Positions 19,777-31,974 of a stretch of DNA of 64,000 bases are shown here, piece by piece. The stretch lies in NCBI RefSeq assembly GCF_048403405.1, contig NZ_CP183129.1; one strand, written 5' to 3'. This stretch comes from Escherichia coli (GTDB lineage Bacteria; Pseudomonadota; Gammaproteobacteria; Enterobacterales; Enterobacteriaceae). A model generated the notes under the pieces. That model was not told where the DNA came from. It searched no databases and saw only the letters and a program-made list of their open reading frames with translations. The translations under genes and the position numbers were made by a program. Each line of letters starts with the position of its first letter. The first letter of the stretch is position 1.

Positions 19777-20499
19777 TTAAACGATGCGGCAGGCGTCGGC
19801 TTCCCAGCGGTAACCGACGCCGTAAACGGCACGGATAAAGGACTGTTCGGCGTCGAGAGATTCCAGCTTGCGACGCAGGTTTTTAATGTGGCTGTCGATG
19901 GTGCGGTCGGTTACTACGCGGTAGTCGTCATAAAGATGATTGAGCAATTGCTCGCGGGAGAACACTTTTCCTGGTTCATGAGAGAGCGTTTTCAGCAGAC
20001 GAAATTCCGCAGGCGTCAGGTCAAGCATTTTTCCGCGCCATGAAGCCTGAAAACGACCTTCGTCGATAATCAACGGGCTTTCAGCATCCTGTTGCTGCAA
20101 CTCACGCTGCGGTTTGCAACGGCGCAAAATGGTTTTGACGCGCGCTACCACTTCCCGTGGGCTGTACGGCTTGCAGATATAATCATCTGCGCCAATTTCC
20201 AGCCCCAGCAGGCGGTCGATCTCTTCGATTTTTGCTGTCACCATCACGATCGGAATGTCAGAAAAACGACGAATTTCCCGACACAGCGTCAGGCCATCGG
20301 TGCCAGGGAGCATCAGATCCAGCAGGATCAGATCCGGTGGTGTCTGGCGCACATACGGCAGTACCTGATCGCCGTGGCTAATCAACGTTGGCGCATAGCT
20401 CGCAGCACGCAGATAATCAATGAGTAACTGCCCCAGCTTCGGTTCATCTTCCACGATCAAAATACGCGGTGTGTTTTCGTCGATTGGTAACTCGGTCAT
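19777..20499 (-). CDS. baeR: OmpR-family response regulator BaeR, 240 aa
   Basis: ORF track; receiver domain plus winged-helix; operon context. Confidence 0.9.
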
Positions 20500-21899
20500 A
20501 CTTCTCTCTGTAAATCCCGTTCCAGCGGTAACTCTACTGTAATGCTTACCCCGCCAAAAGGCGAATGGGCAGCAATAATGCGGCCATTATGTGCTTCAAC
20601 AATGTTCAGGCAAATCGCCAGCCCCAGCCCGGAACCGCCGCTGGCACGGTTGCGGGAGCCTTCGGTGCGATAAAAACGTTCAAACAATTTTTGTAGTTGA
20701 TCGTCACTGACACCCGGCGCACTGTCGGCAAAGGTCAGGCGCACCGTTTTGTCGTGCTGCCCGGCAGAGATTTTCAGGCTGCCGCCGCTGTCAGTGTAGC
20801 GCAGGCTGTTTTCAAGTAAGTTATTGAATAACTGCATTAAACGGTCGCGATCGCCAAATACAGTAATACTGTCTGGCAGGGAAAATTGCAGTTTCAGGCC
20901 ACGGCTGGCGAATCGTTCGCGAAATGCGCCGCCCGCCACTTCCAGCAGTGGGATCAAATCTACCGGTGCTTTTTGATAGGCGAGAGCGCCTTCATCAGAC
21001 ATCGACAACTGATGAAGATCGTCAACCAGTTTGGTCAGTGTACCGACCTCCGCCTGTAAAGACGCCACCGTCTCCGGCGTGAATTTACGCACGCCATCCT
21101 GAATGGCTTCCAGTTCACCGCGCAGCACCGCTAATGGCGTACGCAGTTCGTGAGAAATATCGGCCATAAAATCGCGCCGCATTTGCTGGTTTTTCTCCAG
21201 CGTGCTGGCAAGCTGGTTGAAGTCTTGCGCCAGTTTGCCCAGTTCATCTTCACTGGTGGGCGTTACGCGGGTAGTGAAATCGCCCGCCGCCAGTTTGTGC
21301 GTGCCGTCCACCAGCCGTTTTACCGGTGCCAGCAAACCACGCGCCAGCAGAAAGGTAGCGAGTGCCGCGAGTAACGTTGCCAGAGCGACAATCAGCCAGC
21401 TGGTTTGCCGCTGTTGTTTATCGAAATTGATATCAGTATTGCGGGTCAGTCGCTCAACAGGGGAGGCAATCACCGCGCCCACTTCCGCACCGTTGACCAG
21501 AATGGGTCGCCGTGTACCGTCAGGTGGAATCGGCGCTCGCGGACCAACCAGCACTTTGTTGTTTTGATCAACCACCCAGAACTGGGTACGCCAGCCGTGC
21601 GGTGGCATACCCGGGCCGGGTTTATCTTCCGAATTATCGTGTTCAAATGAACGCAGGATCTGAAAGACAAAGCGATCATTGTTGCGCAGGAAGCGCCAGT
21701 TGCCATGCTGCGCATACTGCTCGCCAAGCGCATCACTTAACAGTTGTAATCGCTGTTCATTACCATGCTTGATGTAATCAATAAAGCCACGCTCAAAACT
21801 GATACGCACCGCCCAGTGCATACTGATCAGCAAGACAATGCAGGTGGCGAAAATCGCCAGAAACAGTTTGCCGGTAATACCGGGTCGCCAGAACTTCAT
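20496..21899 (-). CDS. baeS: Envelope-stress sensor histidine kinase BaeS, 467 aa
   Basis: ORF track; HAMP/HisKA/HATPase motifs (HELRTPL); overlaps baeR start. Confidence 0.9.
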
Positions 21900-29300: not shown

Positions 29301-29512
29301 GCAGAGGTCATGACATCCGGGCTCGCACCTGGGTAGAGCGTGACTACCTGAATGGTCGGATAGTCCACTTCCGGCAGCGCCGAAACGGGCAGGGCTCTAT
29401 AACCGATAATCCCAGCGAGTAAGATCGCCACCATCAGCAGCGTGGTGGCGACAGGACGCATAATAAACAGGCGCGACGGGCCGCCTGTGCTGCTCGGGGG
29501 TAACACCTGCAT
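26390..29512 (-). CDS. mdtB: RND multidrug efflux pump subunit MdtB, 1040 aa
   Basis: ORF track; AcrB-like paralogue of mdtC. Confidence 0.9.
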
Positions 29513-30759
29513 CAGGAGCGTGCTCCTTTTTTCGCGTATTCGCGGCTGGTGGCTTTCTCTTCCGGAGTGGTGGCGCTCTGGGCTTCCACTACTTCCACTT
29601 TCGCCCCTTCGGTCAGGCGATCAATGCCGTCTGTCACTACGCGGTCGCCCGCAGAAATACCTGCGCGGATCACCACTTTCTGACTGTCCTGAATGCCCGG
29701 CGTCACCAGATGTTTGCTGACCTTGTTTTCGCTATTCAGCACCCAGACAAAATGGCCTTCGTTGCCCATTTGCAGAGCGGCGGTGGGGATCACCACGGCG
29801 TTTTGTTCGGTGTCGACTAACATACGCGCGTTAACAAACTGATTGGGAAACAGCGCATCATCCTGATTATTAAAGCGTGCTTTCACTTTAATCGTACCGG
29901 TAGTGGCATCGATTTGGTTATCGAGGCTTAACAGCGTGCCTTCACTTAATTTCTTCGAGTTGGTGCGATCCCAGGCTTCTACCACCAGCGGTTTTCCGGT
30001 TTTTTGCGCCTGTACTACGGTAGCGATATCGCTTTCCGGCAGGGTAAAGAGCAAATCGATAGGATGCGTCTGGGTGATCACCACAATCCCGGTGGTATCA
30101 CCACTGGAGATTTGGTTACCAACATCAACCTGCTTGAGACCAACGCGACCATCGATTGGTGCGGTGATGCGGCTCCAGTCGAGCTGCAGCTGCGCGCTGG
30201 CGACGCTTGCTTCATCAGCCTTAATGGTGCCTTCGGTTTCACTGACCAGCGCCTGTTGGGCATCCAGCTCCTGGCGGGAGACAAGATTGGTTTTTGCCAG
30301 TTGTTGATAACGCGCCAGGTCACGGCGGGCGTTGGCAAGCGTGGCTTTATCTTTTGCCAGTTGGCCCTGGGCTTGTGCTAATGCAACTTTGAACTGGCTT
30401 GGGTCAATTTCTGCCAGTAAATCGCCTGCTTTGACCTGCTGGCCTTCCTGGAAATGTAACGCCATCAGTTGACCGTCCACGCGGCTGCGCACCGTAACGG
30501 TATTAGCGGCGGTAATGGTGCCAAGCCCGGTGAGATAACGTGGCACAGCTTGTTCTACGGCAGTCGCCGCCTGAACCGGGGCTAATGGGCCGGCACGCAT
30601 ACCACGGCGACCACCCGCTGGCGATTGCTGCGCTTGTTTCGTCGCCCCTGGGGCTGCACTCTGGGAGTCATTGCGGCCTTGCCAGAACCAGAATGCGGCG
30701 ATGGCGGCGATAACCAACACGATTACGATTACCCAACGGGATTTATAACTGCCTTTCAT
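29512..30759 (-). CDS. mdtA: Membrane fusion (periplasmic adaptor) protein MdtA, 415 aa
   Basis: ORF 29512..30906; start moved to MKGSYKSRW to match MdtA length as recalled. Confidence 0.85.
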
Positions 30760-30812
30760 CGTTAAGAGTTTCTCTTCCTGAAACGTTTCACGGAATGATA
30801 CTAGTGTAGCCA

Positions 30813-30830
30813 GCCAATAAGGGAGAAAAA
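30813..30830 (-). promoter_or_regulatory. BaeR box upstream of mdtA (TTTTTCTCCCTTATTGGC on the minus strand)
   Basis: 17/18 match to the BaeR consensus TTTTTCTCCATDATTGGC as recalled; about 55 bp upstream of the mdtA start. Confidence 0.6.
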
Positions 30831-30989
30831 TGGAGGAATTATGAAACACTGTCGGGAATCGTCTGAATGACGGGCACATTTGCGAGCACGCATCCAGTAA
30901 TAACACATGAAACTATTTTATCTGCAAGTTAGCGATAGACTGCTTGCATGGCGAAAGGAGGTAAGCCGCCGTTTTCAGCGGGACGCTGA

Positions 30990-31128
30990 AACGGGAAAGC
31001 CCCTCCCGAGGAAGGGGCCTTAAATAAGGAAAGGGTCATGATGAAGCTACTCATCATCGTGGTGCTCTTAGTGATTAGCTACCCAGCATACTAAGACTAC
31101 CAGGGCGGGGGAAACCCCGCTCTACCCT
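30990..31128 (-). ncRNA. Sib-family antisense sRNA (type I antitoxin), copy 1; ends approximate
   Basis: Minus-strand promoter-like TTGACA-17-TACTTT near 31135..31165 and hairpin gcccct/aggggc plus U-rich tail near 30995..31018; fully overlaps ibs copy 1. Confidence 0.5.
31038..31094 (+). CDS. Ibs-family type I toxin peptide, copy 1 (MMKLLIIVVLLVISYPAY)
   Basis: 18-codon ORF with SD aaggaaagggtc upstream; Ibs-like hydrophobic peptide. Confidence 0.75.
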   Translation: MMKLLIIVVLLVISYPAY

Positions 31129-31317
31129 CACTCCTGAAAGTATGCCTTCACGATAAGATTGTCAATCTGCAGGCTTTGCAGTCTGCGATCCTGCCAGCAA
31201 ATATTCTTTGCGAGACGTTACGCAATAATCACACTGGAAACTATTTTATCCGCAAGTCAGCGATAGACTGCATACAGGGCGAAAGGAGGTAAGCCGACGA
31301 TTTCAGCGGGACGCTGA

Positions 31318-31456
31318 AACGGGAAAGCCCCTCCCGAGGAAGGGGCCTTAAATAAGGAAAGGGTCATGATGAAGATACTCATCATCGTGGTGCTCTTAGT
31401 GATTAGCTACCCAGCATACTAAGACTACCAGGGCGGGGGAAACCCCGCTCTACCCT
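31318..31456 (-). ncRNA. Sib-family antisense sRNA, copy 2; ends approximate
   Basis: Same elements at equivalent positions in repeat unit 2. Confidence 0.5.
31366..31422 (+). CDS. Ibs-family type I toxin peptide, copy 2 (MMKILIIVVLLVISYPAY)
   Basis: Same position within repeat unit 2. Confidence 0.75.
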   Translation: MMKILIIVVLLVISYPAY

Positions 31457-31646
31457 CACTCCTGAAAGTATGCCTTCACGATAAGATTGTCAATCCGCAG
31501 GCTTTGCAGTCTGCGATCCTGCCAGCAAATATTCTTTGCGAGTCGTTACGCAATAATCACAGAGGAAACTATTTTGGTCACGCGTTAGCGATAGACTGCA
31601 TTCAGGGCGAAAGGAGGTAAGCCGACGATTTCAGCGGGACGCTGAA

Positions 31647-31790
31647 ACGGGAAACCCTCTCCCGGAGAAGAGGGCTTTTAATAAGGAAAGGGTTATGATG
31701 AAGCACGTCATCATACTGGAGATACTCTTAGTGATTAGCTTCCAGGCTTACTAAGAACACCAGGGGGAGGGAGAAACCTCTCCCTAACCC
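31647..31790 (-). ncRNA. Sib-family antisense sRNA, copy 3; ends approximate
   Basis: Equivalent position in unit 3; minus-strand TTGACA-17-TAATTT promoter-like element near 31800..31830. Confidence 0.45.
31695..31754 (+). CDS. Ibs-family type I toxin peptide, copy 3 (MMKHVIILEILLVISFQAY), IbsA-like but with an internal Glu
   Basis: 19-codon ORF in repeat unit 3; GAG codon read directly from sequence. Confidence 0.7.
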   Translation: MMKHVIILEILLVISFQAY

Positions 31791-31974
31791 TCACTCCTGA
31801 AATTATGTCACTCCGCCCTTAGTGTCAATCGACGGCTCTCCGTTCTTGCGAGGCGAATAGCAAAATTTTCTGCGCCGCCGGGCCTAATTCTGAAAGTTTC
31901 TTCGTTTGCTCTTATTTCATTATTGCAATCGGTATGATACCGGGCCTCAATAATTCTCTAAGAAAGGATTTCTT

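Follow-up and report, generated by a model that had tools for sequence, protein, structure and literature searches.

The closest described systems are those of Escherichia coli K-12, for which the BaeR site, the mdtABCD-baeSR operon, its regulator and the adjoining sibA/sibB locus have all been reported. ChIP-exo located two BaeR peaks upstream of K-12 mdtA, at 2153931-2153967 (peak_5) and 2153972-2153998 (peak_6), and the main text of that study counts all of mdtABCD-baeSR among the direct targets of BaeR (Choudhary 2020, PMC7657598). In the same work, knockout of baeR in 5% ethanol changed mdtA expression by a log2 fold change of -4.0 (a drop of about 16-fold), with values of -3.6 to -4.6 across mdtA, mdtB, mdtC and baeS under ethanol, while basal mdtA expression in LB was BaeR-independent (log2 fold change 0.07) (PMC7657598). 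The BaeR motif, 5'-TTTTTCTCCATDATTGGC-3', is taken here second-hand, as quoted in PMC3915751, and Bury-Moné et al. (PMC2731931) list only four reported BaeR sites (spy, mdt-bae, acrD and ycaC). The neighbouring K-12 locus comprises the sibA/ibsA and sibB/ibsB pairs (QUAD repeats between yegL and mdtA; RF00113). Such ibs-sib loci are repeated within one intergenic region and have undergone lineage-specific duplication (PMC2887945), and for the K-12 pairs both the toxicity of Ibs and its repression by the cognate Sib are known (PMC2943612).

We compared with these systems a 64-kb stretch of E. coli DNA, called here the window, which carries a three-unit variant of the locus already described for K-12. 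Its minus strand encodes mdtA, mdtB, mdtC, mdtD, baeS and baeR; the last two, which specify the cognate two-component system, close the operon (19777-21899). The NCBIfam equivalog scores of MdtA, BaeS and BaeR are all above the curated cut-offs, and for BaeR the next-best models after its own are CreB and PhoB. The 1.5 kb around the BaeR box match strain GN02461 at 100% identity; against almost every other complete E. coli genome the identity is 93-98%. The features of the operon and of its upstream region are the following:

19777-20499, minus strand: baeR (NCBIfam equivalog, 450 bits; annotation)
20496-21899, minus strand: baeS (NCBIfam equivalog, 931 bits; annotation)
29512-30759, minus strand: mdtA, first gene of mdtABCD-baeSR (ORF; NCBIfam equivalog NF008589 MdtA/MuxA, 723 bits; RefSeq annotation of the identical strain GN02461)
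30760-30794, minus strand: mdtA leader with the Shine-Dalgarno-like AGGAAGAG (30779-30772) and the 12-bp palindrome TGAAACGTTTCA (30790-30779), both read from sequence and of putative function
30795-30803, minus strand: predicted mdtA -10 (overlapping TAGTAT and TATCAT), proposed from the sequence
30830-30813, minus strand (the mdtA strand): published 18-mer BaeR box TTTTTCTCCCTTATTGGC, from the motif search
30846-30826, minus strand: invariant block TTTCATAATTCCTCCATTTTT, from the cross-genus alignment, inside the equivalent of ChIP-exo peak_5
30847-30878, no strand: unique spacer that separates the repeat array from the BaeR region, part of a 119-bp segment and without homology to the inter-unit sequence

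A first-pass annotation of this DNA had placed a 17/18 match to the BaeR consensus at 30813..30830, about 55 bp before the start of mdtA. The motif search recovered the same 18-mer, TTTTTCTCCCTTATTGGC, on the minus strand, with a single mismatch (C for A at position 10), and the gap from the box to the mdtA ATG (30759..30757) was counted as 53 bases. The box is the sole match in the window at up to three mismatches, with 0.14 expected, and it ends 9 bp before the predicted mdtA -10 on the coding strand. This 17/18 score is not independent evidence, because mdtA is among the four reported BaeR sites and the motif was probably built in part from the mdtA site itself. The annotation had also proposed a comparison with published BaeR footprints, which bore it out. 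The 18-mer is identical in K-12 MG1655, at NC_000913.3 2153945-2153962, and because it falls within peak_5 the footprint does not map elsewhere. By coordinate transfer from K-12, peak_5 corresponds to 30844-30808 of the window and contains the BaeR box, and peak_6 corresponds to 30803-30777 and begins at the predicted -10. The K-12 sequence from sibB to mdtA aligns with the window without gaps; the box, the core promoter, the box-to-ATG distance and the operon are the same, whereas the flanks differ by three SNPs in 160 bp. We read the interval upstream of mdtA, with a probability of roughly 0.92, as the promoter native to the mdtABCD-baeSR operon of E. coli, including its site for activation by BaeR.

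The motif match could also be regarded as a functionless product of chance, and at up to three mismatches 14 of 100 shuffled windows did give a match somewhere in their 64 kb. At up to one mismatch, however, none of the 100 shuffles contained a match to the BaeR motif. Moreover, the box has the correct placement and orientation, the K-12 sequence in which BaeR occupancy was measured in vivo is identical, and the box is unchanged in nine of the ten other E. coli loci inspected, the one difference being a substitution that the motif permits. A chance match is thus next to impossible, and the ChIP-exo mapping effectively refutes it. The single box variant was found in strain TL-14 (T to G at motif position 12, window equivalent 30819), where the motif match is unaffected because position 12 is a degenerate D position. 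The C at motif position 10 is present in every sequence examined from E. coli, E. albertii and Citrobacter, and on this comparison it is the native state of the mdtA site. A contig scan with TTTTTCTCCNTNATTGGC, whose 16 specified bases predict about 140 chance matches over 298 Gb, returned 120 loci, nearly all in unrelated organisms; no mdtA promoter was among them, and the one relevant match was the spy promoter of E. albertii. A CpxR box (GTAAA-N5-GTAAA, up to two mismatches) was not found in 30740-30990.

The mdtA upstream region of E. coli was then aligned with those of E. albertii, two Citrobacter and one Klebsiella of the oxytoca group, which were obtained via their MdtA homologues. The best-conserved element across Escherichia, Citrobacter and Klebsiella is TTTCATAATTCCTCCATTTTT, which lies just upstream of the 18-mer and overlaps only its first five bases. 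Escherichia and Citrobacter retain the CTCCCTT of the 18-mer, which Klebsiella has replaced; the ATTGGC tail differs from genus to genus, and Klebsiella lacks the downstream half altogether. On this alignment the published 18-mer is a correct pointer to the conserved site and a poor outline of it, because its ATTGGC tail is poorly conserved and its downstream half is missing in Klebsiella. A second invariant block, ACTAGTAtCATTcCGyGAAACGtTTCAGGA (lower-case and y positions vary), covers the predicted -10, the palindrome and the Shine-Dalgarno region.

The arrangement of short motifs in and around the first block suggests how the site is built. CTCCAT (30835-30830) is positioned 10 bp upstream of the CTCCCT of the box (30825-30820), and a weaker TTTCAT (30846-30841) is found a further 11 bp upstream. 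Comparable motifs occur at other BaeR targets, with CTCCTT 11 bp upstream of the acrD box and CTCCAT 22 bp upstream of that of spy. It is likely that TTTCATAATTCCTCCATTTTT extends the BaeR site as tandem direct repeats, a reading consistent with the regulator family. The K-12 spy and acrD boxes share the 18-mer motif and the orientation to the gene with mdtA, and match the motif at 18/18 (spy) and 17/18 (acrD, as for mdtA). The gap from box to ATG differs, at 138 bp in spy, 70 bp in acrD and 53 bp in mdtA, and no BaeR ChIP-exo peak was reported for acrD (PMC7657598).

With regard to the core promoter, ACTAGTAtCATT is invariant across the five aligned taxa except at its lower-case position (T to A in E. 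albertii), and we predict the mdtA transcription start near 30788. With a start there, the region protected in ChIP-exo would span about -56 to -20. Occupancy of this kind is the usual layout for activators of the OmpR/PhoB family that substitute for a -35 element. The parallel is with PhoB at its pho boxes and with class II activation in the OmpR family, in which a winged-helix regulator occupies direct repeats with a period of about 10-11 bp that cover or stand in for a poor -35, and the same layout would apply here. On this reading phosphorylated BaeR, a response regulator of this family, binds a site at about 30846-30813 that includes the published 18-mer. The site would overlap the -35 position and reach just upstream of it, in a promoter whose -35 is weak and whose -10 is at 30803-30795. 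BaeR then recruits RNA polymerase and switches on the efflux pump together with its own two-component system, in a positive autoregulation. From sequence features we propose the exact -10 and start, a geometry of class II, and a site made of two or three direct repeats at a period of 10-11 bp.

The table of transcription starts in Kim 2012 (PMC3415461) lists no start for the BaeR-dependent mdtA promoter. A strong start (207 reads) in the sibA region, at K-12 NC_000913.2 2151394, is assigned there to mdtA with a 646-nt leader (Kim 2012). It is almost certainly a Sib-related start that was given to the nearest downstream gene, and not an mdtA promoter.

The conservation of 30846-30826 could have another origin, namely that the block supplies the -10 (CATAAT, 30843-30838; with TTCAGA, 30867-30862, as -35) of a second, BaeR-independent mdtA promoter and does not belong to the BaeR site. 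TTCAGA-18-CATAAT (9/12) was the sole sigma-70-like match of the scan, CATAAT is invariant and TTCAGA largely conserved across genera, and BaeR is dispensable for basal mdtA expression. However, 1.3 such matches are expected from shuffled sequences, and with the corresponding start, near 30831, the BaeR box would fall at +1 to +18, a repressor position, although BaeR activates the operon. In addition, the block lies inside a BaeR ChIP-exo peak, and the BaeR motif core CTCCAT occurs in it at a 10-bp register to the CTCCCT of the box. A second promoter is for these reasons an unlikely explanation of the block, which we continue to read as part of the BaeR site. TTCAGA-18-CATAAT was also considered as the main mdtA promoter and rejected, as a chance-level match with which positions +1 to +18 would be taken up by the activator site.

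Just downstream of the predicted -10, and within the equivalent of peak_6, TGAAACGTTTCA (30790-30779) forms a perfect 12-bp palindrome that is unique in the 64-kb window. Its core, GAAACGTTTC, is invariant in Citrobacter and Klebsiella and carries a 1-bp deletion in E. albertii. The palindrome is completed by the T at 30790 of this strain, which is shared with Klebsiella, whereas K-12 has a C; the C was found in all ten other E. coli loci checked, so that the common E. coli allele is CGAAACGTTTCA. The palindrome agrees with all upper-case (high-information) positions of the published Cra motif, gcTGAAtCGaTTCAgc, for which 0.22 matches per window are expected at up to one mismatch. The main text of the Cra ChIP-exo paper does not include mdtA, and our literature search returned no paper linking mdtA with Cra, FruR or RbsR. 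An assignment as a Cra or RbsR operator was dropped, as a resemblance without supporting literature. The palindrome (T/C)GAAACGTTTCA at the predicted start could nevertheless serve as an operator for a repressor of the LacI/GalR type.

On the far side of the BaeR region lies the ibs/sib array, with the following features:

30879-31206, no strand: ibs/sib unit 1, sibB type (repeats; Rfam RF00113, 141.6 bits; blastn to K-12 sibB, 95.6%)
30936-30941, plus strand: -10 (TAGACT) of the unit 1 ibs promoter, with a start at about 30948, transferred from the K-12 ibsB start
31129-30994, minus strand: unit 1 Sib RNA, by homology to annotated K-12 sibB
31038-31094, plus strand: unit 1 ibs ORF, MMKLLIIVVLLVISYPAY, antisense to Sib
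31207-31534, no strand: ibs/sib unit 2, sibB type, with 93% identity to unit 1 (repeats, Rfam, blastn)
31457-31322, minus strand: unit 2 Sib RNA
31366-31422, plus strand: unit 2 ibs ORF
31535-31830, no strand: ibs/sib unit 3, sibA type (repeats, Rfam, blastn)
31792-31649, minus strand: unit 3 Sib RNA
31695-31754, plus strand: unit 3 ibs ORF, MMKHVIILEILLVISFQAY
31975: start of yegL, beyond unit 3

The three units have a period of 328 bp, and the Rfam model SIB_RNA (RF00113) gives three minus-strand matches of 140.8-145.9 bits against a gathering score of 56. Antisense to the Sib RNAs are three hydrophobic ibs ORFs of 18-19 aa (MMKLLIIVVLLVISYPAY, MMKILIIVVLLVISYPAY and MMKHVIILEILLVISFQAY), labelled in RefSeq as Ibs family toxins. 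In position, strand layout, Sib structure model and Ibs peptides the array agrees with the K-12 sib locus; K-12 has two units (sibA and sibB), whereas this strain has three, with one extra unit of the sibB type. The array is an independent toxin-antitoxin locus of type I. That it adjoins the BaeR region, as the first-pass annotation had it, holds, and the distance of about 80 bp from the box to the first repeat does not: when the three units are aligned with their left flanks, repeat homology starts at 30879 (TTTGCGAG), 48 bp past the distal edge of the box. The earlier figure probably reflects the strongly conserved part of the unit (GAAACTATTTT), which starts near 30909.

The closest 3' end of a Sib RNA, placed at 30994 by comparison with K-12 sibB, is 164 bp from the BaeR box, and the divergent ibs promoter (-10 TAGACT at 30936-41, start 30948) sits between Sib and mdtA. 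The K-12 ibsB start that was transferred has a 90-nt leader and rests on 3 reads (Kim 2012, PMC3415461 supplement). The 5' end of ibsC overhangs SibC by 18 nt (Han 2010). Applied to unit 1, that overhang would put the ibs start near 30976 instead of 30948; the ibsB value was preferred, as it comes from the orthologous unit.

To describe the variation of the array, units were counted in 60 of the 5,422 matching E. coli records, sampled at regular intervals along their ranking. In this sample 24 records had three units, 24 had two, 7 had four or more and 1-2 had one, with a few interrupted loci (about 40% two, about 40% three and about 12% four or more). The array is therefore variable in copy number, as had been claimed, with one to four units among E. 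coli records. The extra copies are of the sibB type and are added distal to unit 1, and the yegL-proximal unit is always of the sibA type, a pattern that fits unequal crossing-over between internal units.

The further claim, that changes in copy number could alter the context of the mdtA promoter, received no support from the sequences: the geometry is constant in 12 loci with one to four units, loci with IS insertions or prophages included. Box and ATG are separated by 53 bp in all 12. Of these loci, 11 retain the repeat edge, in each case 119 bp from the ATG, and 10 retain unit 1, with the first Sib core at a distance of 284-285 bp from the ATG. Loci with 1, 2, 3, 4 and 4 units align without gaps across 340 bp. 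The unique 119-bp segment is present at 95% identity or more in 5,416 of 5,426 genomes, and its length is the same in 39 of 40 sampled rows; the remaining one is a locus interrupted by an IS. In Citrobacter one Sib unit, at an unchanged spacing of 264 bp, lies between yegD and mdtA, which indicates that the Sib-mdtA junction predates Escherichia; Klebsiella has no Sib unit. From these alignments, the first unit is a fixed neighbour of the promoter since before the divergence of Escherichia and Citrobacter, and the copy number changes distal to it.

An effect of unit number could still reach mdtA from a distance, through Sib read-through, transcription-coupled supercoiling or altered upstream DNA, and so change expression of mdtABCD-baeSR. 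Every Sib gene is oriented toward mdtA, and the Sib terminator is a strong hairpin with a broken U-tract (UUUCCCGUUU) that the terminator scan did not call. Furthermore, the variation from one to four units is real, and basal mdtA expression in LB is independent of BaeR. On the other hand, the nearest 119 bp and the entire unit 1, with its Sib terminator and divergent ibs promoter, are constant wherever present, and any added unit lies at least 330 bp further off and brings a terminator of its own. The mdtA promoter is also separated from the 3' end of Sib by two hairpins placed back to back (-33 kcal/mol, z = -3.9), and no paper linking sib copy number with mdtA was found in the searchable literature. 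We consider such an effect improbable. Its most specific form would have Sib transcription from one to four promoters, ending at interrupted U-tract terminators, feed read-through or supercoiling into the mdtA promoter, so that unit number would tune basal MdtABC and BaeSR between lineages; this, too, seems quite unlikely to us. The reading that we retain is that of a BaeR-controlled promoter with a fixed first unit as its neighbour.

Several loci carry insertions in or near the array. In strain WWCOL-315, ISCro1 (IS66 family) is inserted 21 bp upstream of the BaeR box (between 30851 and 30852), with the box and the conserved block intact, and IS elements lie close to the promoter in strains LR-31, MB07152 and WWCOL-315. 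Among other IS-bearing loci, IS150 was found inside the leader of unit 1 and IS421 between units 1 and 2. The IS-bearing strains are natural constructs for effects of upstream context.

A prophage end, with integrase and excisionase adjoining, joins an ibs/sib unit at the identical point in two species, ...CCTTAAATAAGG/TAAGTTGCATATTTAAAATC (the slash marks the junction). The junctions are at 2295-2300 of the E. coli Z1323CEC0007 locus and at 250-256 of the E. albertii locus, just upstream of the ibs start codon and inside the Sib gene; in the window this point corresponds to 31033 and 31361. The unit concerned is the second in E. coli and the first in E. albertii, where the junction lies 274 bp away from the start codon of mdtA. 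The sib/ibs unit resembles a phage attachment site. On the other flank, the Citrobacter Sib/Ibs unit (locus coordinates 1392-1537 and 1391-1537) is located between yegD and mdtA in a region that lacks yegL-pphC-yegI. Since Citrobacter does not have these genes at that place, yegL-yegI (a vWA protein, a PP2C phosphatase and a kinase) lies between yegD and the array only in Escherichia.

As it stands, the site is a re-identified textbook regulatory element next to a known repeat locus, and by itself it matters little. If unit number influenced expression of mdtABCD-baeSR, the array would provide cheap natural variation in the set-points of envelope stress and efflux; our sequence comparisons gave no hint of such an influence. 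The additions made here are modest, and consist of a cross-genus footprint of the BaeR site and of a population picture of unit number with a fixed promoter geometry. For annotators of the BaeR regulon, they mean that TTTCATAATTCCTCCATTTTT, and not the 18-mer, outlines the invariant element upstream of mdtA, and that the sib-mdtA junction is old and of fixed geometry.
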